Source: Sinorhizobium meliloti
GTDB taxonomy: Bacteria; Pseudomonadota; Alphaproteobacteria; Rhizobiales; Rhizobiaceae
Direction of reading: 5' to 3'
DNA: 32,000 nt
Assembly (NCBI RefSeq): GCF_017876815.1
Contig: NZ_JAGIOS010000003.1
Coordinates: 1,110,001-1,142,000, forward strand
Both the position numbers and the translations under genes were made by a program. Below, one piece after another: positions 1,231 through 25,689 of the stretch; position 1 is the stretch's first letter; every line of letters starts with the position of its first letter. The notes beneath the pieces were generated by a model. That model was not told where the DNA came from and ran no database searches. It saw nothing but the letters and a program-made list of their open reading frames with translations.

Positions 1231-1944
1231 ATGTTAAGTTTCCTGAAGAAAGATCCGCAGGTCATTCAGTTTGTCTGCCATCCGGAAGACGATGGCGTCA
1301 TCGCGCCGCCGCTACCGGCCAAATCGGTTCTGCCGGATTGGTTCCGCCGGCTGCCGGCGGTCGACAAAGGGCACCTGTCGGCAACCAACAACGGTCTGAC
1401 CGTCAAACGCTGCATGCCCTTTCTCGATGCTATGACCACCGGCTGGATTCTGCCGATCGCCGCTACGGTGCGCCTTGACGTCAAGGATGACGGCCGCAGC
1501 GTCGATGCAGGCTGGGAGTTCGACCGGGTGATGGTCAGCAACCACGGCGCCCACCAGGTGGCGGGCAATCCGAAAGAGCCCTCCCCGCCCTGCAAGTTTC
1601 ACAATTACTGGTCGATTCGCACGCCGCCGGGATGGAGTTGCCTGTTTCTGCCGCCGCTAAACCGCCCCGGACAGCACTTCGAATGTGTAGCGGGCATTGT
1701 CGATACGGACAGCTATAGCGCTCATATCCATTTTCCGTTCTTCGCGACGGCGCCGGATGGCCTTCACGTCGTCGAAAAGGGAACGCCGCTTGTACAGGTG
1801 ATACCCTTCCGCCGTGCCGATGCGGCGGTCACGGCAGAAATCCGCGCCGAAACCCGCGCGGATGCTACCGAGCGCGAGGCAATCCATCGGAACACCCTCG
1901 CCGGAGAAGGCTGGTATCGCAAGTCGGCGCGCGCCGCGCGCTAG
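1231..1944 (+). CDS. Conserved hypothetical protein, 237 aa, no signal peptide (possibly a DUF6065-type family; not verifiable here)
   Basis: Clean ORF with a GGGAGAAG SD 5 nt upstream of the ATG and GC-rich third codon positions. It is preceded by promoter motif P1. Its stop codon TAG (1942-1944) lies inside the CTAGAGC start of the dispersed repeat. Confidence 0.7.
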   Translation: MLSFLKKDPQVIQFVCHPEDDGVIAPPLPAKSVLPDWFRRLPAVDKGHLSATNNGLTVKRCMPFLDAMTTGWILPIAATVRLDVKDDGRSVDAGWEFDRVMVSNHGAHQVAGNPKEPSPPCKFHNYWSIRTPPGWSCLFLPPLNRPGQHFECVAGIVDTDSYSAHIHFPFFATAPDGLHVVEKGTPLVQVIPFRRADAAVTAEIRAETRADATEREAIHRNTLAGEGWYRKSARAAR

Positions 1945-2052
1945 AGCACTTCCAGGAAGGTACGTGGCGATTTTCCGTCCACAAGTGCATAACTTCAAAG
2001 GGTTAGAGGGCTAGAGCGTTTCATGTCTCGATGAACAGGGAAACACTCTAAA
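1941..2052 (+). repeat. Dispersed intergenic repeat, copy A (CTAGAGCACTTCCAGG...TTTTCCGTCC...CTTCAAAGGGTTAGAG...GATGAAC)
   Basis: It aligns by eye with 14318-14400 (same orientation) and with 23450-23520 and 24550-24617 (opposite orientation). It contains the hairpin GCACTT(1946-1951)/AAGTGC(1983-1988). Confidence 0.6.
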
Positions 2053-2064
2053 CGGTCCGATCAG

Positions 2065-2107
2065 ACAAGAGAGCGGGGGCCGGAATGTCCGGCCCCCGCT
2101 CTCTTGT
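2065..2107. terminator. Strong GC-rich hairpin, probably a bidirectional terminator between convergent genes
   Basis: The sequence is ACAAGAGAGCGGGGGCCGG-aatgt-CCGGCCCCCGCTCTCTTGT, a perfect stem of about 19 bp. It sits between the 237-aa gene (+) and the NSSS-repeat gene (-). Confidence 0.8.
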
Positions 2108-2131
2108 CGCACCTTCAACTTTTCCGCAATC

Positions 2132-2494
2132 TCAGCGCCCTGTGTGCCACAGCTTGCCTGGACGGTACGACCGGTCTGACCGGTTCGAGCTCGAATTGGA
2201 CGAACGATTCGAGGAGGAGTTCGACGAACTGTTCGAGGATGAATTAGAGCTCGAATTCGAGGAACTGTTGGACGAAGAGTTGGAACTCGAATTGCTGGAG
2301 GAGTTGGAACTCGAATTGGATGAGCTGTTGCCGGCGACTATGATCTCGCCGTCGGTCCGGCCCGTCTGGGCGGTTTGCGTCGAAGTGCGATCCACGCCGG
2401 GAAATAAGGGGGCATATTCCCTTGCTTCGGCCGCAGAGCCCACGAATGCCGCCAGGCCGGCAGCGATTGCCTTGTTCGTCCAGTTCTTTGCCAT
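2132..2494 (-). CDS. Small secreted Asn/Ser tetrapeptide-repeat protein (120 aa; signal peptide followed by 13 NSSS-type units)
   Basis: The start was moved to the ATG at 2494, which has an AAGGAG SD 8 nt upstream. The N-terminus MAKNWTNKAIAAGLAAFVGSAAEA looks like a Sec signal peptide with an AxA cleavage site. Promoter motif P2 lies 50 nt upstream, and the terminator hairpin lies downstream. Confidence 0.7.
   Translation of the reverse strand: MAKNWTNKAIAAGLAAFVGSAAEAREYAPLFPGVDRTSTQTAQTGRTDGEIIVAGNSSSNSSSNSSSNSSSNSSSNSSSNSSSNSSSNSSSNSSSNRSSNSSSNRSDRSYRPGKLWHTGR
2174..2329 (-). repeat. 13 tandem 12-nt (4-codon) units encoding NSSS x10, NRSS, NSSS, NRSD
   Basis: Read directly from the sequence. 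The units use different synonymous Ser and Asn codons (AGC/AGT/TCG/TCC/TCT/TCA; AAC/AAT). The repeat is therefore much more regular at the protein level than at the DNA level. Confidence 0.9.
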
Positions 2495-2543
2495 CTCATC
2501 TACTCCTTGTGAAAACCGGACCGGTTCTTCGGTCCGCAGGAGT

Positions 2544-2568
2544 AACGGCCGGTGCGCGCCTCTATTCC
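2544..2568 (-). promoter_or_regulatory. Candidate ECF-type promoter P2 upstream of the NSSS-repeat gene
   Basis: The minus strand reads GGAATAGAGGCGCGCACCGGCCGTT followed by ACTCC. P1 has the same -35 extension (GGAATAGA) and the same CCGTTACTCC -10 region. The spacer is exactly 16 nt. Confidence 0.55.
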
Positions 2569-2590
2569 ATGATCGCAATTTTTGATGCAC

Positions 2591-3376
2591 TTACCGTTGC
2601 GCACCTTGGAGTTCGCTGAGGGCTCTGGCCTCTTCCGCTGCCTCGAGCGGCGCCCCTGCATCGATCGCGGTCAGATAGGCGTCGAGCGTTTCCGTGGAAG
2701 ATGCAGGAGCATAACCGCCGGTGGCTCCGGGTGCGATGACGGCGAACGTCACGCGCCACTCTGACCCGGCGCGGCAGGCAACCGAAACCACTGTTGAGCG
2801 ATCGTCCGAGTCCAGCTCGAACTCGCGGCACAGCGCCTGCGCATTGTCACGGAATGTCGCAATCGCCCGGAAACGTTGGTCGGAACCTGGCAACCGCCGT
2901 TCCTCGCCTGCGGCGACCGTGGCGAGCGCCTCGTCAAGCGCAGGGCTGCCGATGGCGGCAACGCCCGAGCCACCCTCGATCGGCGCCTCGACACTTCCCC
3001 GCAGCCAATATCCGCCGAACCCCGCAACGACAGCCGCCAGAGAGGCGGCGACGGGAGCGAGCCATCGACTTCTGTGAGATTCGTTCGCAGCGCGGCGCGG
3101 GAAAGGCAGGATGCCCGCGCCCGATACCGAAGGTGGCGACGTCTTCTCCATCACCATTCTTTCGACCGCACGCTTGAGCTCGGAAGGTACCGGCTCATCG
3201 AGCAGCGGCTCCATAGCGGCCTTGGCCGCATGGCGCGTTTCGATGAAGAGTGCCACCCGCGCGACCAGCGCATCATCCGTTTCCATCGCTCGTTCTACTT
3301 CGGCAGCAGTCCCGGTATCGAGCTCGCCGTCGGCGAACCGCATCAGTATCTCATCCGAGAAGTCGGCTCTTGTCAT
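2591..3376 (-). CDS. Anti-sigma factor: N-terminal anti-sigma domain without a zinc motif, one TM helix, and a periplasmic domain of about 135 aa
   Basis: An ATGA overlap couples it to the sigma gene (3373-3376). The N-terminus MTRADFSDEILMRFADGELD is typical of ECF anti-sigma factors. The TM segment is WLAPVAASLAAVVAGFGGYW. Confidence 0.8.
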   Translation of the reverse strand: MTRADFSDEILMRFADGELDTGTAAEVERAMETDDALVARVALFIETRHAAKAAMEPLLDEPVPSELKRAVERMVMEKTSPPSVSGAGILPFPRRAANESHRSRWLAPVAASLAAVVAGFGGYWLRGSVEAPIEGGSGVAAIGSPALDEALATVAAGEERRLPGSDQRFRAIATFRDNAQALCREFELDSDDRSTVVSVACRAGSEWRVTFAVIAPGATGGYAPASSTETLDAYLTAIDAGAPLEAAEEARALSELQGAQR

Positions 3377-13272: not shown

Positions 13273-13357
13273 TATAACCGGTCCGTTTTTCGCTCGCCCC
13301 GCGATCCTCCGCCAGGGCAACAGCTGCGCCCGTGGATCGGGTGCAGGTGTTGAAGTG

Positions 13358-13738
13358 TTACGCCCTACGGGCCTTGCGGGCGGCGTAACGGCGATCACGC
13401 TCTGCCTTGCGGGCCGCCTCGTCCGCCACGACGCGCGAGACCCGATTGGCGATTTCTGCCTGGCGGGCTTCGGCTTCAGCCCTTTGCTCGGCCTCGGCGG
13501 CCGCGGCCGACGCAGCGGCTTCTGCCAGGATTCGCTCGTTCTCGGCGGTCTTCAGCGCTTCGCGCTCGGCACGGCGGGCATCCCTGGCACGGCTAGCCGC
13601 TTCACGAGCAGCCAGTTTTTCCCGCATTTCAGGGTCGGTCGGCTTGGGAGCGGATGCAAATTTTGTCAGGAGCTGACGCTTTGCATCTGCTGCGGCATTG
13701 CGTCGTTCGGCAAAGCCGTTGTCGCTCGGGTGTCTCAA
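13358..13738 (-). CDS. Ala/Arg/Glu-rich coiled-coil protein (DUF6481-like)
   Basis: TTG start with an AAGGAA SD about 7 nt upstream. The composition is highly charged and helical (AAREAASRARDARRAEREALKTAENERILAEAAA...). Confidence 0.7.
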   Translation of the reverse strand: MRHPSDNGFAERRNAAADAKRQLLTKFASAPKPTDPEMREKLAAREAASRARDARRAEREALKTAENERILAEAAASAAAAEAEQRAEAEARQAEIANRVSRVVADEAARKAERDRRYAARKARRA

Positions 13739-13775
13739 TCGTTATTCCTTCGAATCGTTTGGTCGCGTAGAATGG

Positions 13776-13803
13776 GAAAAGGCCAGACATTCGCCTGGCC
13801 TCT
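13776..13803 (-). terminator. Rho-independent terminator of cspA
   Basis: The minus strand reads AGGCCAG-gcgaatgt-CTGGCCT followed by TTTCCC. It lies 55 nt downstream of the cspA stop codon. Confidence 0.6.
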
Positions 13804-13858
13804 TCGAACCTCTTGCCGCGATGCCAGTACATCCGTGGTCATCAGCGGCGAAAAAGCA

Positions 13859-14068
13859 TCAGGCAGCGCGCAGCTGGCCTGCGGACATCTTGCCCGACTT
13901 ATTGTCGCGCTCGAGCTCAAAGCCGAGCTTCTGACCTTCGACAATCGAATTCATGCCGGCGCGTTCAACAGCAGAGATGTGAACGAACACATCGGCGCTG
14001 CCGTCGTCAGGCGCGATGAAACCGAAGCCCTTGGTGGAATTGAACCATTTAACTGTGCCAGTGGTCAT
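13859..14068 (-). CDS. cspA: Cold-shock protein (CspA family, 69 aa)
   Basis: [34 protein letters not shown] carries the RNP1 and RNP2 motifs. An AAGAAAGGG SD precedes the start. Confidence 0.95.
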
Positions 14069-14206
14069 AACGAACCCTTTCTTAGCAACATAGATCACCG
14101 CTGGGCGACGCACAGCGGGGTTTCGACTTTTGAGAGAGGGAAGTTCGTCAAGAGACGCGCAAAGCGCAGCAAAACAAATATCGGCAAACAAAGTATCGAT
14201 GCCCTT

Positions 14207-14234
14207 TCATAGACGAGAGCGGCGGCCACGTCAA
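14207..14234 (-). promoter_or_regulatory. Candidate housekeeping-type promoter of cspA with a long 5' UTR
   Basis: The minus strand reads TTGACG-N16-CTATGA, close to the rhizobial CTTGAC-N17-CTATAT consensus. It would give a leader of about 130 nt, as is typical for cspA genes. Confidence 0.4.
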
Positions 14235-14317: not shown

Positions 14318-14400
14318 TTAGAGCACTTCCAGGTGTAACGGTTTTCCGTCCGGAAATGCACAGCTTCAAAGATTAGAGCGTTCCTTGTTAGATGAACGCG
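14318..14400 (+). repeat. Dispersed intergenic repeat, copy B
   Basis: The sequence is GTTAGAGCACTTCCAGG...TTTTCCGTCCGGAAATGCACAGCTTCAAAGATTAGAGCGTTCC..GATGAAC. The hairpin arms are 14323-14333 and 14350-14359. Confidence 0.6.
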
Positions 14401-20607: not shown

Positions 20608-23142
20608 TCATGTGAGTGGCGCTTCGATGTGAAAGCGCACGCCACTCGGTGCAAACACAAGGTCAACTTTGCCGCCCAGTTCGCGGGCCAAAGCACGTTC
20701 CAGCAGACGAGTGCCAAAACCGGTCCGCGCTGGGACCATGACAGATGGACCACCAATCTCCTCCCATTGTAAATGCAGGTGAGATACGCTCTCAAGATCG
20801 CTGACATGCCAGTTGACCTTGATCAGACCACCGTCGTTCGTGAGCGCCCCGTATTTTGCAGCGTTTGTGCAAAGCTCATGAAAAGCCATCGATAATGCCA
20901 ACGCCATTTTCGGCCGCAACCGGAGCGGCGGACCAGAGGCCTGAACGCGCTGCTGGGGTTCCACGCAAATCGGATTGATCGTCGCGTGAAGAACCTCTCC
21001 AAGATCCGCACCCTGCCAGCTCTCCCGAGTAAGCACGTCGTGCGCCCTCGCCAATGCTACGAGCCGGCTTTGGAACCGGCCAAAATCTTCGCTTGCATTT
21101 ACACCACGGAAGGTTTGCGCAGCCAGCGATTGAACCGTGGCGAGCGTGTTCTTCACGCGGTGGTTCAGTTCGTTGACCAGGAGCTTGCGGTGTTCTTCGC
21201 TGCGTCGCCTTTCAGTAATATCGCGCGCGATCTTCGACGCGCCGACGACGCGACCGAGGGCGTCTTTCAAAGGGGAAACCGTTAAGGAGACATCGATCAG
21301 GCTTCCGTCCTTTCGAATACGTACCGTCTCATAATGGTCGATGTGCTCGTCTCGCCGAATCCTTTCAAGGATGCCGGGTTCCTCGCCCTGGCGGTCGGGC
21401 GGAATGAGGATGTTTATAGGTTTTCCGATCACTTCCTCGGCGCTATAGCCGAACAGGCGTTCGGCACCTTTATTCCAAGTCTGGATAATGCCTTGCGTGT
21501 CCTTGCTTACGATCGCATCATCCGAGAATCTGACAATTGACGCGAGCCGTTCTGCATATTCCGCAGCTTTCTCGCGATCGGAGATGTCCACCAGCATATT
21601 GACCGCCCCAACAAGCTTGCCGGCGACATCGTGCAGCGGAGTGGGATAAGGTATGAACGGCACACGGGTACCATCCGGTCTTTCGGCCACGGCTTGTTCG
21701 CCACGGACCGGTCGATCTTCTTTGAGCGCCACGGCCATTGGACATTGGTCGTGCGGCAGGTAGGTGCCGTCCGGCCTATAGAGACGCCAGGTGACACACC
21801 ATTTATCTCCGATCTGTGGGGTGCGGCCGGCCATTTCGACAGCCGCCTTATTGAAGAAGGTGATGCGACCTTCGGCATCTGTGGTGTAGACGGCGGCGGG
21901 CAGCGCCTCGAGCAAATCACGCATATGCTGTTCGCTTTCGCGGCGGCGGTCGTCCATGCGTTTGGCTTCGGTGACATCAAGCAGAACCCGCACGCCATAA
22001 CGGAATCGACCGGTGCGATCGCGCACCGTCGAGCTGTAAACGTCGAGATAGATCACCGTACCGTCCGCCTTCACGGCGCGCTTGCGGATAGCATAGGTAT
22101 CAGTCTCTCCGCTGACCTGCCGCGCGTAGCAACGGGCCTCCTCGTCGCGGTCATCCTCGTGCGTGTAGTCGAGGAACGTCATGTTCAGGAGTTGTTCGCG
22201 CGAGCGGCCCAGCATGGTGCAAAATGCATCATTCACCCGCAATAGGCGCCCATCCGCATCGGACTCGGCGATCCCGATCGTGGCCGCCTGATACGTGGCC
22301 GCCAAGCGTTCCTCAGTCTCGCGCCACGCGTTTTCGGTTTCGTGCAGGCTCGTTATATCGGTCGTGAAGCACCGCGTATTGACGAATTTCCCATCCTCGA
22401 AGCGACTGTTGGAGGTGATCAGCACATGCTTGATCGAGCCATCCCGTGCGCGCAAGCGGGCGGGATAGCGATCAAGCTTTTCGCCGCAGGAAAGACGGTC
22501 AAGAATATCGCCGATAACCGGTGCATCTGCGTGGAATTCAGCAATGTGCCGGCCTACATACTCGTCCGCCGGATACCCCAGGAGCTCCAGCTCTGCCTTA
22601 TTTGCCCGCAGGATGATCCCCGCGGCGCTGACGATGTGCAGCCCGATGGCGCTGTTCTCGAAGAAGTCCTCCAGGTCCTTGCTCTTGCAGTTAACCTCCG
22701 CCTCGATCCGCTTTTGTTGCGAAATATCCTGAAAGCAATTGATCGCCCCTTGAATTACTCCCCGATGGTCTCTGAGCGGGCGAATGTTCACGAGCGCAAA
22801 AATGCGGGATCCGTCGGGTCTTTCGATGATCACTTCGGCGTTGCGCGTCGAGACACCGGTCTTGATCGCCTCAGCCATGGGGCATTCCTGGTGGTCCATG
22901 GGCGAGCCGTCCGAGAGGAAAAGACGCTGGGAACCACAAAATCGCTCTCGCGGTGCGCTAAGCGACGGCTGTCTACCCCAAAGTTCGGCAGCCTCCGCGT
23001 TGTAGCCCACGAGCCACCCCTCGTGATCACAGACATAAACGGCTCCCGGTATAGCATCAAGCGCAGTTGGAGCTGACGTAATCAGCGCTTCGTATTCGGT
23101 CAGTACGCGACCGGTGAGTGGAAATTCCTCGACATTCGACAT
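20608..23142 (-). CDS. Cytoplasmic multi-PAS sensor histidine kinase of the HWE/HisKA_2 type (start uncertain: ATG 23142 or TTG 23169)
   Basis: The H-box is LLVNELNHRVKNTLATVQSLAAQT, and a W-x-E box (LHLQWEEIGGP) is present. About 4-5 PAS/PAC repeats occupy the first 640 aa or so. No TM segment is visible. Confidence 0.9.
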   Translation of the reverse strand: MSNVEEFPLTGRVLTEYEALITSAPTALDAIPGAVYVCDHEGWLVGYNAEAAELWGRQPSLSAPRERFCGSQRLFLSDGSPMDHQECPMAEAIKTGVSTRNAEVIIERPDGSRIFALVNIRPLRDHRGVIQGAINCFQDISQQKRIEAEVNCKSKDLEDFFENSAIGLHIVSAAGIILRANKAELELLGYPADEYVGRHIAEFHADAPVIGDILDRLSCGEKLDRYPARLRARDGSIKHVLITSNSRFEDGKFVNTRCFTTDITSLHETENAWRETEERLAATYQAATIGIAESDADGRLLRVNDAFCTMLGRSREQLLNMTFLDYTHEDDRDEEARCYARQVSGETDTYAIRKRAVKADGTVIYLDVYSSTVRDRTGRFRYGVRVLLDVTEAKRMDDRRRESEQHMRDLLEALPAAVYTTDAEGRITFFNKAAVEMAGRTPQIGDKWCVTWRLYRPDGTYLPHDQCPMAVALKEDRPVRGEQAVAERPDGTRVPFIPYPTPLHDVAGKLVGAVNMLVDISDREKAAEYAERLASIVRFSDDAIVSKDTQGIIQTWNKGAERLFGYSAEEVIGKPINILIPPDRQGEEPGILERIRRDEHIDHYETVRIRKDGSLIDVSLTVSPLKDALGRVVGASKIARDITERRRSEEHRKLLVNELNHRVKNTLATVQSLAAQTFRGVNASEDFGRFQSRLVALARAHDVLTRESWQGADLGEVLHATINPICVEPQQRVQASGPPLRLRPKMALALSMAFHELCTNAAKYGALTNDGGLIKVNWHVSDLESVSHLHLQWEEIGGPSVMVPARTGFGTRLLERALARELGGKVDLVFAPSGVRFHIEAPLT

Positions 23143-23449
23143 GTAAACAGGGCTCTCGCGGCTCTTCAAGGGATCGATTGAATCTCAGCCGGAGTCATGG
23201 AGGGACAACTCTGCTCGACGCGCGACCCCCGGGTGCGCAATCTCGGTTAACGTGCATGAACGTACCAGACGCGGTTTTGTTCCCGCCATTTTTTGACTCG
23301 CGCATTTTCGGACCGGCAGCGTCATCCAAGGAGTACCGTTGATCGCACGCGCGCCGCAGGTTGGTCACGGCGTCCTTCTTGAAGGATATGGCGAGAAGCT
23401 GCCCAGCTCCTTCGCCGTTCGCTAATGAGGACGCGACCTAGAATCGTGA

Positions 23450-23520
23450 GACGCGGGATGCGGGAGGAAAATCGCACGCACTTCTCCTCATCCCGCTCTA
23501 GACCCCGGCGCTTTAGAGAT
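23450..23520 (-). repeat. Dispersed intergenic repeat, copy D (variant stem)
   Basis: The forward strand reads GCGGGATGCGGGAGGAAAATCGCACGCACTTCTCCTCATCCCGCTCTAG. The loop and the CTAG end match copy C. The stem arms (23452-23465 and 23483-23495) differ in sequence but still pair. Confidence 0.5.
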
Positions 23521-23658
23521 CTACACTCAAGCTTCTGTGAACCTGAAATTGCATCGGGTCCAGCCCCCTCGCATCGCCCACCGCAATGAATTGCGGTTCG
23601 GGCCCGCGCTTCAGCCCTCAATATACGCAATCTCACCGTGCAAGCGGGAGGAGTATCC

Positions 23659-24069
23659 ATGACCAATGCCCAATGCGCCTGCGGCGCTTTAAGACTGATG
23701 CTTAATGAACCGCCACAATTGACCGCGCTGTGTCACTGTTTGGCTTGCCAGCGAAGAACTGGTGCACCGTTCAGCGCTAATGCGTTCTACTCGATTGACT
23801 GTGTCGAAATATCTGGAGTGTCTACAGAATACATTCGTACGGCCGAGAGCGGTCGCAAGGTCCGAATGCATTTTTGCCCAACCTGCGGCTCGACCCTCTT
23901 TTGGAAAGCCGACGCTTCGCCGTCCTGGATCGGGGTAGCGGTAGGTTCATTTGCCGATCCGGCCTTCGCGCCACCTGCCATGTCAGTATTCGAACGGTCG
24001 AAACATAAGTGGGTGCAGCTTGAGGGAACGGTAGAGCATTTCCAAGACCTTCCAATCGGGCAATATTAG
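23659..24069 (+). CDS. GFA-family (CENP-V/glutathione-dependent formaldehyde-activating-like) zinc protein
   Basis: GGAGGAG SD. The Cys pattern is CACG ... CHCLACQRRTG ... CPTCGSTLFW. Confidence 0.85.
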   Translation: MTNAQCACGALRLMLNEPPQLTALCHCLACQRRTGAPFSANAFYSIDCVEISGVSTEYIRTAESGRKVRMHFCPTCGSTLFWKADASPSWIGVAVGSFADPAFAPPAMSVFERSKHKWVQLEGTVEHFQDLPIGQY

Positions 24070-24190: not shown

Positions 24191-24545
24191 CTACCCGCCG
24201 CCCGAAACGATCTGAAGACCAGCGGATGAGGTTTCTGATTCATCGGTAGTGCCAAGGTTTACGACGGTAAGCTCTGCCGAGCCGGTATCGCCTGTCGCGA
24301 CGATAAATCCCCTGGAGGCGGCAATGGCGGCAATATATCCGTTGGGCGCGTCGGAAATTCTTTGCCGGCCGCTCGAGCGGTCACCGCAAGCTTGGCATAG
24401 CAGCGCGCAGCTCCAATGTCGAACGGCAATACGCGATCGCCAAACAGTTCGAGCACGCCGTCAAGCATTTCGGTCAGAGCCTTCTTGCGCCGACCGTCCG
24501 GCAGCGCACCGATGCCGAACAGCAGTTCGCTTTCTCCGAATCGCG
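24191..24545 (-). pseudogene. VapC/PIN-domain toxin remnant (N-terminally truncated, one frameshift)
   Basis: One frame gives ELLFGIGALPDGRRKKALTEMLDGVLELFGDRVLPFDIGAARCYAKLAVTARAAGKEF. The C-terminal part, DAPNGYIAAIAASRGFIVATGDTGS, continues in another frame. About 45 N-terminal residues and any vapB partner are missing. Confidence 0.6.
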
Positions 24546-24549
24546 GAAA

Positions 24550-24617
24550 CTCTCTAACCCTTTGTTTCCGCAATCCCGGACGGAAACCCACTCCGCACTT
24601 CTCCTGGAATTGCTCTA
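24550..24617 (-). repeat. Dispersed intergenic repeat, copy C, whose terminal CTAG was the IS630 target
   Basis: The forward strand reads CTCTAACCCTTTGTTTCCGCAATCCCGGACGGAAACCCACTCCGCACTTCTCCTGGAATTGCTCTA. The hairpin arms are 24570-24579 and 24603-24613. Confidence 0.55.
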
Positions 24618-24710
24618 GAGCGGGATGCATTTAGGCGGAATCGGAAAGGGGATTCCTTTTTCTGCGCAAATCAGATTCACCATTCAGGCCGGTGAAGGAG
24701 GCCGGCCTTT

Positions 24711-25657
24711 ATGGCGAGACCTTTTTCGAATGATCTTCGGGAACGCGTTGTCGATGCGGTGACGGGCGAGGGCCTATCGTGCCGGGCAGCGGCCAAGCGC
24801 TTCGGCATCGGCATCAGCACCGCGATCGATTGGGTGCGGCGGTTTCGCGAGACGGGCAGCGCCGCACCCGGCCAGATGGGTGGGCACAAGCCCCGCAAGC
24901 TTTCCGGTCCGCACCGGGCTTGGCTGCTTTGCCGCTGCCGCGAGCGCGACTTCACGCTGCACGGACTTGTCGCCGAGTTGAGCGAGCGCGGCCTGAAGGT
25001 GGATTATCGCGCCGTCTGGACCTTCGTGCACGAAGAGGGGTTGAGTTATAAAAAAAGACGCTGGTCGCCAGCGAACGGGAGCGGCCCGACGTCGCCCGCC
25101 ACCGGGCACGATGGCTGAAGCACTGCCCCGGAATTGATCCCGCCCGCCTCGTTTTCATCGATGAGACCTGGACGAAGACGAACATGGCGCCGCTGCGGGG
25201 CTGGGCGCCTCGCGGCGAACGACTGGTGGGCTACGCCCCCTTCGGCCATTGGAACACCATGACCTTTGTCGCCGCACTCAGGGCCGACCGCGTCAGCGCT
25301 CCCTTTATCCTCGATGGCCCGATCAATGGCGAACGCTTCCGCATCTATGTCCAGCAAGTTCTGGTGCCGGAACTCAAAGCCGGCGACATCGTCATCCTGG
25401 ACAATCTCGGCTCCCATAAGGGTCAGGAGATCCGCGCCGCCATCCGTAAGGCCGGCGCCCGCCTGTTCTTTCTGCCGAAATATTCCCCCGATCTCAATCC
25501 GATCGAAAAGCTCTTCGCCAAAATCAAGCACTGGTTGCGTGAGGCACAGGCCAGATCACGCGATGCAATCCATGACGAACTGCGCCACATTCTCCAAGCC
25601 GTCACCCCACAGGAATGCGCAGTCTACTTCAAAGAGGCGGGATATGAACGGGCTTAA
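24711..25657 (+). CDS. IS630-family DDE transposase, in two frames joined by a -1 shift at an A7G run
   Basis: The first frame has an HTH N-terminus ([24 protein letters not shown]). The -1 frame continues [21 protein letters not shown]...[26 protein letters not shown]...ILDNLGSHK...[13 protein letters not shown]. Confidence 0.85.
25050..25057 (+). other. A-AAA-AAG-type slippery run (AAAAAAAG) at the transposase frame junction
   Basis: A run of seven A followed by G lies exactly where the reading frame changes from frame 0 to frame -1. Confidence 0.5.
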
Positions 25658-25689
25658 ATACATACCGCTCTAGCAGGCTGTTGAAGAAG

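Follow-up and report, generated by a model that had tools for sequence, protein, structure and literature searches.

Intergenic hairpin repeats of a Sinorhizobium meliloti megaplasmid as probable miniature transposable elements with IS630-type ends

Related repeats and the four copies in the window

The closest described counterparts of the repeat considered here are the repetitive extragenic palindromic (REP) elements of Sinorhizobium meliloti. Tobes and Pareja (2006; PMC1525189) counted 294 of them on the chromosome and reported them as insertion targets of ISRm22, ISRm19, and ISRm5, with ISRm2011 at a REP in one of two cases, and Schlueter et al. (2010; PMC2873474) listed those of strain 1021 that show transcription. 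The single pSymB entry with coordinates in that list, 1457135-1457178, overlaps a 65-nucleotide (nt) transcript, SmelB182 (PMC2873474 Table S3), and reads gcgggatgaggaaaagtgtgtgcggttttccgcccgcatcccgc. We analyzed a family of intergenic hairpin repeats with four copies, A to D, in a 32,000-nt stretch of S. meliloti DNA (contig NZ_JAGIOS010000003.1, positions 1,110,001 to 1,142,000; here, the window), and the pSymB element has the hairpin type of copy C, designated subtype 2 below. We consider it likely that the repeat is a miniature inverted-repeat transposable element (MITE) with TA duplication and IS630-type ends, mobilized by an IS630-type transposase, any regulatory role being secondary and hypothetical.

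The S. meliloti REP elements and the repeat have the organism and the sequence type in common, and both are extragenic, palindromic, often arranged in paired clusters, transcribed, and targeted by insertion sequences (ISs). However, the REP annotation counts each palindrome of 45 to 60 nt as a separate element and proposes no mechanism of mobility, whereas here two palindromes make up one 104-bp unit that inserts with TA duplication; in addition, the match to a named REP concerns subtype 2, while copies A, B, and D belong to subtype 1. The first-pass annotation had called the repeat reminiscent of RIME/REP-type elements, a label that the pSymB match bears out. The family is already known, annotated as REP in S. 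meliloti, and is an ordinary kind of bacterial repeat. A full-text literature search for strings of its core sequence gave no result, and nothing relevant was found in the literature on rhizobial MITEs and IS630.

RIME1 and RIME2, which Osteras, Stanley, and Finan are said to have described in 1995, are reportedly intergenic elements of Rhizobium and Sinorhizobium, about 108 to 109 bp long and composed of two large palindromes. Our unit, with a modal length of 103 to 104 nt (counted between the T of TAG and the A of CTA, both included; range, 62 to 116 bp) and two palindromic modules, is present in these genera and resembles RIME in reported size and layout. Unlike RIME as reported, the family extends further. 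A scan of one genome per species gave at least 120 DNA stretches with about 110 family members, nearly all from Hyphomicrobiales: Rhizobium, Sinorhizobium/Ensifer, Mesorhizobium, Aminobacter, Chelativorans, Pleomorphomonas, Nitrobacter, Variibacter, Xanthobacteraceae, and Beijerinckiaceae. A consensus 106-mer was found at 3162 places in 525 plasmid records, and all 16 of the 16 genera named there are Hyphomicrobiales. BLAST located 16 to 24 places per pSymB-like and 6 to 8 per pSymA-like replicon, and the lack of further copies that would have told against the first-pass annotation is thus not seen.

The noncoding RUP element of Streptococcus pneumoniae, attributed to Oggioni and Claverys (1999), is reportedly about 107 bp long, with IS630-like ends, a TA duplication, and a proposed mobilization in trans. 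The mechanism proposed for RUP and other IS630-related MITEs (e.g., Nezha) is the same as that proposed here, but RUP is unrelated in sequence and belongs to another host phylum, while our repeat has two self-complementary modules and a deeply conserved core without counterpart in the IS ends seen. The Correia/NEMIS elements of Neisseria duplicate a TA target, are cotranscribed, and fold into hairpins. They are also about 100 to 150 bp long with inverted-repeat ends and are classed as MITEs in work cited in PMC3733652, but they differ in sequence, have no ends in common with our repeat, and carry IHF sites and promoters, neither of which was found in it; promoter and terminator scans of copies A and B found nothing. 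Bru-RS1 and Bru-RS2 of Brucella (Halling and Bricker 1994), compared here by description only, are likewise palindromic repeats of 103 to 106 bp in the Hyphomicrobiales and hot spots for ISs, although the IS associated with them is IS711 and not a member of the IS630 family. No Brucella contig is among the at least 120 stretches listed in the species scan.

Judged by sequence identity, the window is part of an S. meliloti pSymA-type megaplasmid. It is 100% identical to pSmeSM11c of strain SM11 over four compared stretches (221 nt to 2.85 kb) and 96.5 to 99.5% identical to pSymA of strain 1021 over the three stretches with a 1021 match listed. The family pattern TAGAGC-N6-AGG-N5-25-KTTTCCKYCC, written from the four copies, matches the window exactly four times (1942-1980 and 14319-14351 on the plus strand; 23462-23500 and 24578-24617 on the minus strand), with 0.00 matches expected by chance (100 dinucleotide-preserving shuffles). 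An nhmmer profile built from the four copies recovers the same four, with E values from 6e-24 to 4e-13, and nothing else in the window with an E value of <0.8. These results rule out chance similarity, and the four related intergenic copies of the first-pass annotation were recovered at essentially the same places and on the same strands, their similarity standing under formal alignment. Also as described there, every copy has the CTAGAGC-stem-core-stem layout with internal inverted repeats and folds into the hairpin, and a second module is seen in copies A, B, and D.

Empty sites, ends of the unit, and the IS630 family

Filled and empty alleles were found at two loci of the Rhizobium leguminosarum complex, with flanks about 94 to 95% identical (Table 1). 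In both pairs, one TA stands at the empty site and a TA on each side of the filled one; at the GNAT locus, a small coding sequence is annotated as ending at the TAA of the empty allele. If the 105 bp and one TA of copy A are taken out of the window, the sequence on both sides of the resulting junction aligns collinearly and without gaps to S. medicae and S. fredii; there, the restored sequence reads CGC-TAA-ACGGTCCG versus CGC-TGA-ACGATCCG in these two species. Copy B occurs in M270 but is lacking from the cspA-groES spacers of both S. meliloti MABNR56 and Sinorhizobium sp. C101; with its right boundary eroded, it was dropped as a clean empty-site case. In the scan, the base before the 5' TA is C in 72 copies, T in 25, A in 15, and G in 8, and the base after the 3' TA is G in 44, A in 19, and C and T in 1 each. 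The allele pairs and the copy A comparison therefore indicate that the whole bipartite unit inserts in one piece at Y-TA-R, most often CTAG, with TA on both sides. Small size without coding capacity, terminal inverted repeats, and target-site duplication are the features of a MITE, a TA duplication in a CTAG-like target is one of an IS630-derived MITE, and all are seen here; the MITE-like option, one of several left by the first-pass annotation, is supported by the insertion alleles with TA duplication.

The intact unit was read from copies in other genomes because those of the window are older and blurred. Its 5' part consists of (C/T)TA-GAGC, a variable stem of 6 nt, A, GGAAAAGTG, a loop of 3 to 5 nt, CGGTTTTCC, GYCC, and the closing stem, with AGGAAAAGTG..CGGTTTTCCGYCC as the invariant core of hairpin 1. 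The 3' part is an A-rich spacer (AAAACAAAGAGT) followed by palindrome 2, TA-GAGCGGTTC...GAACCGCTC-TA. The terminal inverted repeats start with TA-GAGC(R)(R)TTC and end with GAA(Y)(Y)GCTC-TA. Subtype 2 has the stem GGGATG/CATCCC and another second palindrome, GATCACG...CGTGATC; its hairpin 1 is palindromic throughout, as far as GAGCGGGATG/CATCCCGCTC, and copy C is a short form of this subtype. Some arrangements depart from the single unit. At L044 (3583-3740), two full units lie head to tail with one TA in common (..CCTC-TA-GAGC..), and at L112 (1482-1640) and L042 (2328-2450), hairpin 1 is directly repeated without the TAGA foot, an arrangement suggestive of slippage or recombination rather than transposition.

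ISRm2011-2, an IS630-family element in the window, contains open reading frames (ORFs) with HTH and DDE_3 domains; its name is the one that identical copies bear in RefSeq. The inverted repeats of ISRm2011-2 read GAGCGGGATGCATTTAGGC and GAGCGGTATGTATTTAAGC (the latter, at the right end, as reverse complement), in the context C-TA-GAGCGGGATGCATTTAGGC...GCTTAAATACATACCGCTC-TA-G, and the first 10 nt of the left one are the subtype-2 hairpin end GAGCGGGATG that follows TA in copy C. Four further IS630-family elements were inspected, three from Rhizobium/Sinorhizobium and one from Mesorhizobium (ends in Table 1). All begin with TA|GAG, in a CTAG context except for the one at L143 (1423-1672; S. meliloti L6-AK89 plasmid pCpl). 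ISRm2011-2 and three of the other four have C-TA-GAGC.. at both ends, and L143, identified at its right end only, has TA-GAGC there, in GCTAG; the ends at L141 and L143 were read by eye, and an inverted-repeat search gave none. The right end of an R. leguminosarum copy of the repeat, TAGAGCGGTTCAACTTTTC (..CAGCTTTTA), and the IS of Rhizobium sp. WSM4643, TAGAGCGGTTCATGTTTTG, agree in 12 contiguous bases and in 16 of 19 overall. All five IS630-family elements thus have TA|GAGC at one or both ends, with short matches to the repeat ends (10 nt and 12 contiguous nt), and this likeness supports, but does not prove, mobilization by an IS630-family transposase. The element at L143 directly precedes a further copy of groES-groEL, and a CIRCE-like inverted repeat (TTAGCACTC..GAGTGCTAA) follows closely on its right end; this element parallels copy B, likewise upstream of groES.

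A different transposase that duplicates TA might have moved such a MITE. IS711, a member of the IS5 family, is an example. It duplicates TA at YTAR and prefers the Bru-RS repeats of about 103 bp (PMC3163539), and this target consensus is the same as here. Yet the terminal GAGC.. and the contiguous bases just described match IS630-family repeats from the same species complexes, in a comparison confined to IS630-family ends, and we regard such a different transposase as quite unlikely to be the one involved.

The ends and the duplication also bear on the view that the family is of the REP/REPIN type and moves as single-stranded DNA through a REP-associated tyrosine transposase (RAYT), an IS200/IS605-like enzyme. 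Enzymes of the IS200/IS605 type are not known to make such a target duplication, which we count against this view, and the ends of the repeat match the inverted repeats of DDE-type IS630 elements. The annotation as REP speaks for it, as do the imperfect hairpins with a conserved bulge and 5' foot, widespread in intergenic DNA, and an excess of top-strand wobble pairs (see below) that fits a single-strand mechanism. REP, BIME, and REPIN elements of Escherichia coli and Pseudomonas are also short extragenic palindromes, often at gene 3' ends, clustered, and targeted by ISs. They carry a GTAG or CGTC tag, however, and measure 20 to 40 bp (PMC3733652). The foot here is (C/T)TAGAGC, with G before TAGAGC in 8 of 120 copies, so that it does not amount to the REP tag, and the modules of about 45 to 55 nt are at or beyond the upper REP size and move jointly as a larger, 104-bp unit with TA on both sides. 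Movement by a RAYT is accordingly highly improbable.

ISRm2011-2 is also informative about the target. It occupies the CTAG of copy D in the window; the first-pass annotation had named the CTAG of copy C as its target, but that site (23498-23501) carries no insertion. Copy A has a CTAG between its two modules, and in strain RMO17, an end of ISRm2011-2 adjoins the TA of this site. Homology to the ten collinear S. meliloti/S. kummerowiae records listed ends at the CTAG of copy D (query 1374), and the 430 bp to the right of ISRm2011-2 match only at other locations, in the three records listed (an S. meliloti accessory plasmid, Ensifer canadensis, and Rhizobium sp. T136), two of them beside an IS5-family transposase. 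ISRm2011-2 therefore marks a rearrangement in SM11, and the TA pair around it cannot be read as a duplication because the right flank comes from another locus.

Stem pairing, the conserved core, and stop codons

The alignment comprises 56 columns and 119 copies, drawn from more than 100 Hyphomicrobiales contigs. RNAalifold gave no consensus structure on the MAFFT alignment, because of 1-nt register shifts between stem subtypes, and the hairpin for the pairing test was specified by hand. Pairing is found in 91.2% of cells, compared with at most 58% with the partner slid, and cells with both bases changed number 154 against 39.7 in shuffles (0/500). The outer stem occurs in 26 variants with pairing kept. 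By contrast, core positions left free by the scan pattern (AAAAGTG and CGG) are at least 90% conserved across families, although the conservation of the core as a whole is partly a matter of ascertainment, as the pattern demanded AGG and KTTTCCKYCC. At two places of locus L064 (6014-6150 and 3361-3500; metagenome-assembled genome Alphaproteobacteria N075bin68), a GC-rich palindrome (CATGCCCCGGCGAAGGCCGGGGTG) sits in the apical loop after AAAAG, which suggests a second tiny palindromic element nested in the repeat.

The strong compensatory change could mean that the repeat is first of all a functional RNA element, that is, a stabilizer in the 3' untranslated region (UTR), an attenuator or terminator, or a small RNA under structural selection. 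Several observations are in line with this: the 47:16 ratio of G-T to A-C pairs in the top strand, the position of copies A and D directly after stop codons in sense orientation, the short stable transcripts at S. meliloti REPs (such as SmelB182 on the pSymB copy; PMC2873474), and the effect on translation that work cited in PMC5082802 ascribes to E. coli REPs at most 15 nt from the stop codon. Against it, the Rfam search proposed in the first-pass annotation matched the four copies to no family, either at the gathering threshold or at E values up to 10, and a known RNA family was rejected on this ground. The folding z-scores of single copies are modest (-1.5 to -3.2) and alike on both strands, scans of copies A and B show no terminator-like T-run, and copies are also located in divergent promoter spacers (copy B). 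The presence/absence polymorphism with TA duplication means arrival by transposition, and orientation to the adjacent gene (28 versus 21) shows no strong preference. We hold a primary RNA function to be unlikely, while an RNA role could be a secondary, co-opted one.

The conserved core might instead be the binding site of a host protein (a nucleoid protein, gyrase, or a CcrM-linked factor), with the repeats organizing DNA or methylation. Identity of the pattern-free core positions next to a variable outer stem would fit, and GANTC sites occur in 30 of 65 full units, compared with 22 ± 4 in shuffles, and cluster in the loop of module 2. A passage of Chen and Shapiro (2003) links long intergenic repeats of alphaproteobacteria to CcrM sites. 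Nevertheless, no candidate protein is known, the GANTC excess is about 2 standard deviations with more than half of the copies lacking a site, and insertion polymorphism between close strains argues against an essential chromosomal role; core conservation is equally expected if only copies with an intact transposase-binding site amplify. We consider a host-protein site very unlikely as the explanation. The clustering itself (19 of 36 GANTC, or CcrM-type, sites at unit positions 70 to 79, in the loop of palindrome 2) may be related to the methylation-site-associated intergenic repeats attributed to Chen and Shapiro.

The TA target of the probable MITE is often a stop codon. In 62 of 119 copies, an ORF of at least 100 codons terminates in frame at the 5' TAG (4 and 33 in the other frames), and the frame of this TAG is open and has the highest GC content at third codon positions (GC3) in 50 of 113. 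A long ORF ends at the 5' TAG in 28 of the 65 full units, and one on the opposite strand ends at the 3' CTA in 21 (controls, 8 and 8); 8 units have both. Genes annotated independently by the NCBI Prokaryotic Genome Annotation Pipeline agree with this. In Shinella, the stop of a deacetylase gene is the TAG of the element and that of a convergent LysR gene its CTA, and in S. meliloti RCAM1750, the CTAG of copy D holds the annotated TAG stop (minus strand) of an ABC-transporter ATPase gene. Copy A supplies the stop of the 237-amino-acid DUF6065 gene, as the first-pass annotation had it.

Indicative counts by intergenic type are 21 convergent, 35 tandem, and 8 divergent (base-pair baseline, 21/53/26%). 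This crude classification, with weak gene calls, places more copies than expected between convergent genes and fewer in divergent spacers. A GC3-based gene caller was discarded after failing on pSymA, where it missed an 853-amino-acid kinase, and with the longest-ORF caller, 42 copies fell "inside" ORFs, for the most part no more than about 300 nt from the ORF end. With orientation counts of 28 and 21, no clear or strong preference is seen at stop codons, and the pattern therefore points to target choice and survival, not to an orientation-specific RNA function.

Setting of the copies and proposed course of spread

Apart from the shared stop codon, none of the four copies overlaps a long ORF with a Pfam match, and the ORFs that cross the repeat are either overextended or without a Pfam match. 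Copy B is in the divergent spacer between a cspA-like gene (minus strand) and groES (plus strand), its right end degenerate and without a clean boundary. Copy C lies between a PAS/HWE histidine kinase gene (20608-23169, minus strand) and a GFA gene (23638-24069, plus strand). Copy D has a degenerate 3' end.

Table 1. Copies of the repeat, associated features of the window, filled and empty alleles, and ends of IS630-family elements. Limits of copies run from TA to TA where definable.
Feature	Position or source	Strand	Description
Copy A	1942-2050	+	Full bipartite unit: TA 1942-1943, 105-bp element 1944-2048, TA 2049-2050
Copy A, parts	1946-1988; 2012-2050; 2011-2014		Hairpin 1; palindrome 2; internal CTAG
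DUF6065 gene, 237 amino acids	1231-1944		Stop TAG 1942-1944, inside copy A
Copy B	14319 to about 14399	+	Hairpin 1 (GCACTTCC...GGAAATGC) 14323-14359; degenerate module 2 14374-14399
Copy C	23439-23500	-	Hairpin 1 only, subtype 2: TA-GAGCGGGATGAGG..core..CCCGCATCCCGC-GTCTCACGATTC-TA
Copy D	about 24519-24617	-	Hairpin 1 (GCAATTCC...GGGATTGC), spacer, degenerate module 2; 5' CTAG 24615-24618
ISRm2011-2 (IS630 family), 1053 bp	24618-25670	+	TA flanks 24616-24617 and 25671-25672
SDR-MFS locus, filled	R. leguminosarum Ta1k		..TTCCTC-TA-[GAGAAATTCC...GAACCGCTC]-TA-GGTTTCAG
SDR-MFS locus, empty	WSM1325		..TTCCTC-TA-GGTTTCAG
GNAT locus, filled	UPM791		..GGCGCT-TA-[GAGCAATTCC...GAACCGCTC]-TA-GAATCC
GNAT locus, empty	R. 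ruizarguesonis		..GGCGCT-TA-AAACCC
IS630-family end	R. beringeri		GAGCGGGATTGTTTTAG
IS630-family ends	R. ruizarguesonis		GAGCATGCTGTGATTTAG and GAGCGTGCTGTTTTTAG
IS630-family ends	Rhizobium sp. WSM4643		GAGCGGTTCATCGCGTC and GAGCGGTTCATGTTTTG
IS630-family right end	S. meliloti L6-AK89		GAGCACGTCCAC, GCTAG context
IS630-family right end	Mesorhizobium		GAGGGGGATGAATTTAG

Other features were seen beside copies A and B. Just downstream of copy A, positions 2064-2108 form a perfect 21-bp inverted repeat (GACAAGAGAGCGGGGGCCGGA/TCCGGCCCCCGCTCTCTTGTC); its core hairpin is kept in S. medicae and S. fredii, where a T-run follows, while the window version, without T-run, fails the terminator rule. A 12-nt periodic repeat (TTCGAGGAGGAG-like, at least 6 copies) at 2184-2334 is contained in two ORFs without a Pfam match (2085-2585, plus strand; 2132-2590, minus strand), and the 800-bp stretch around it (1600-2400) is 24 bp longer in strain 1021. 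Next to copy B, 13772-14186 (minus strand) gives sub-threshold Rfam hits to the cspA thermoregulator (61 bits versus a gathering threshold of 78; E value, 3e-13) and to the small RNA ar35 (38.6 versus 45). In Sinorhizobium sp. C101, the orthologous position carries an annotated cold-shock protein gene. In the window, the 285-amino-acid ORF at 13355-14212 (plus strand), without a Pfam match, is probably a shadow ORF.

The course of spread that we propose for an IS630-mobilized MITE is as follows. The active unit would be the stretch of about 104 bp from GAGC through hairpin 1, the A-rich spacer, and palindrome 2 to GCTC. An IS630-family transposase acting in trans would cut at TA|GAGC and paste the element elsewhere. 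TA is scarce in GC-rich genomes, and the element would do no harm at the TA of a TAA or TAG stop because its terminal G rebuilds TAG; surviving copies would therefore accumulate at stop codons, in either orientation. Each insertion also makes new CTAG sites, on which IS630-type elements and further copies can land, and this explains ISRm2011-2 at copy D and, in RMO17, at copy A. A copy in a 3' UTR is cotranscribed and folds into stable hairpins, and an effect of such copies on mRNA fate is plausible.

Several points weigh against this reading. No autonomous IS with the core (AGGAAAAGTG..CGGTTTTCCGYCC) in its inverted repeats was found among the IS630-family elements inspected, and a tblastn search of the 120 loci with IS630 transposases revealed no such transposase. 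The likeness between the repeat and the IS630 ends is confined to the terminal 10 to 19 nt, which may be too short for transposase binding, and the target also fits other transposases, as IS711 too duplicates TA at YTAR (PMC3163539). The S. meliloti copies are divergent (mean column identity of 57% across the four; 82% over 33 nt between A and B), and the family may have long been inactive in this genome, to judge from the diverged copies and the degenerate ends of B, C, and D. The ORF-based context counts rest on crude gene calling. Furthermore, a G-G mismatch, a T-G wobble, and the 4-nt GYCC bulge are kept throughout the hairpin, and this asymmetric core, together with the G-T excess, suggests a constraint beyond a simple MITE model, perhaps either a transposase-binding requirement or a constraint on a single strand (RNA or single-stranded DNA).

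A broader and tentative extension is that the RIME-, REP-, and Bru-RS-type repeats of Hyphomicrobiales form one ancient superfamily of IS630-mobilized MITEs with stop codons as their main landing pads. It is conceivable, at the same doubtful level, that the core has been kept within this superfamily as a transposase-binding site or that the hairpin has come to serve a translation-coupled control of mRNA fate, comparable to that of E. coli REPs beside stop codons. The terminal TAG of the element is the stop of the neighboring gene in about half of the copies, and some copies span the two stops of a convergent gene pair exactly, which puts a strong hairpin right after the point where the ribosome stops. 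If this extension is true, repeats that have been long known and mechanistically unexplained would gain a common origin.

What is new here is the evidence on mechanism (empty sites, ends, stop codons, and IS target), as the family itself was known. For annotation, the units matter in that they create spurious ORFs and C-terminal extensions and overwrite stop codons, and they mark CTAG hot spots where IS630-type insertions drive rearrangements, as at copy D in SM11. The natural pairs of filled and empty alleles can be used to ask whether such hairpins affect gene expression. Finally, the empty sites, the TA|GAGC ends, and the docking at stop codons make up a testable hypothesis for the spread of RIME/REP-type repeats in alphaproteobacteria.

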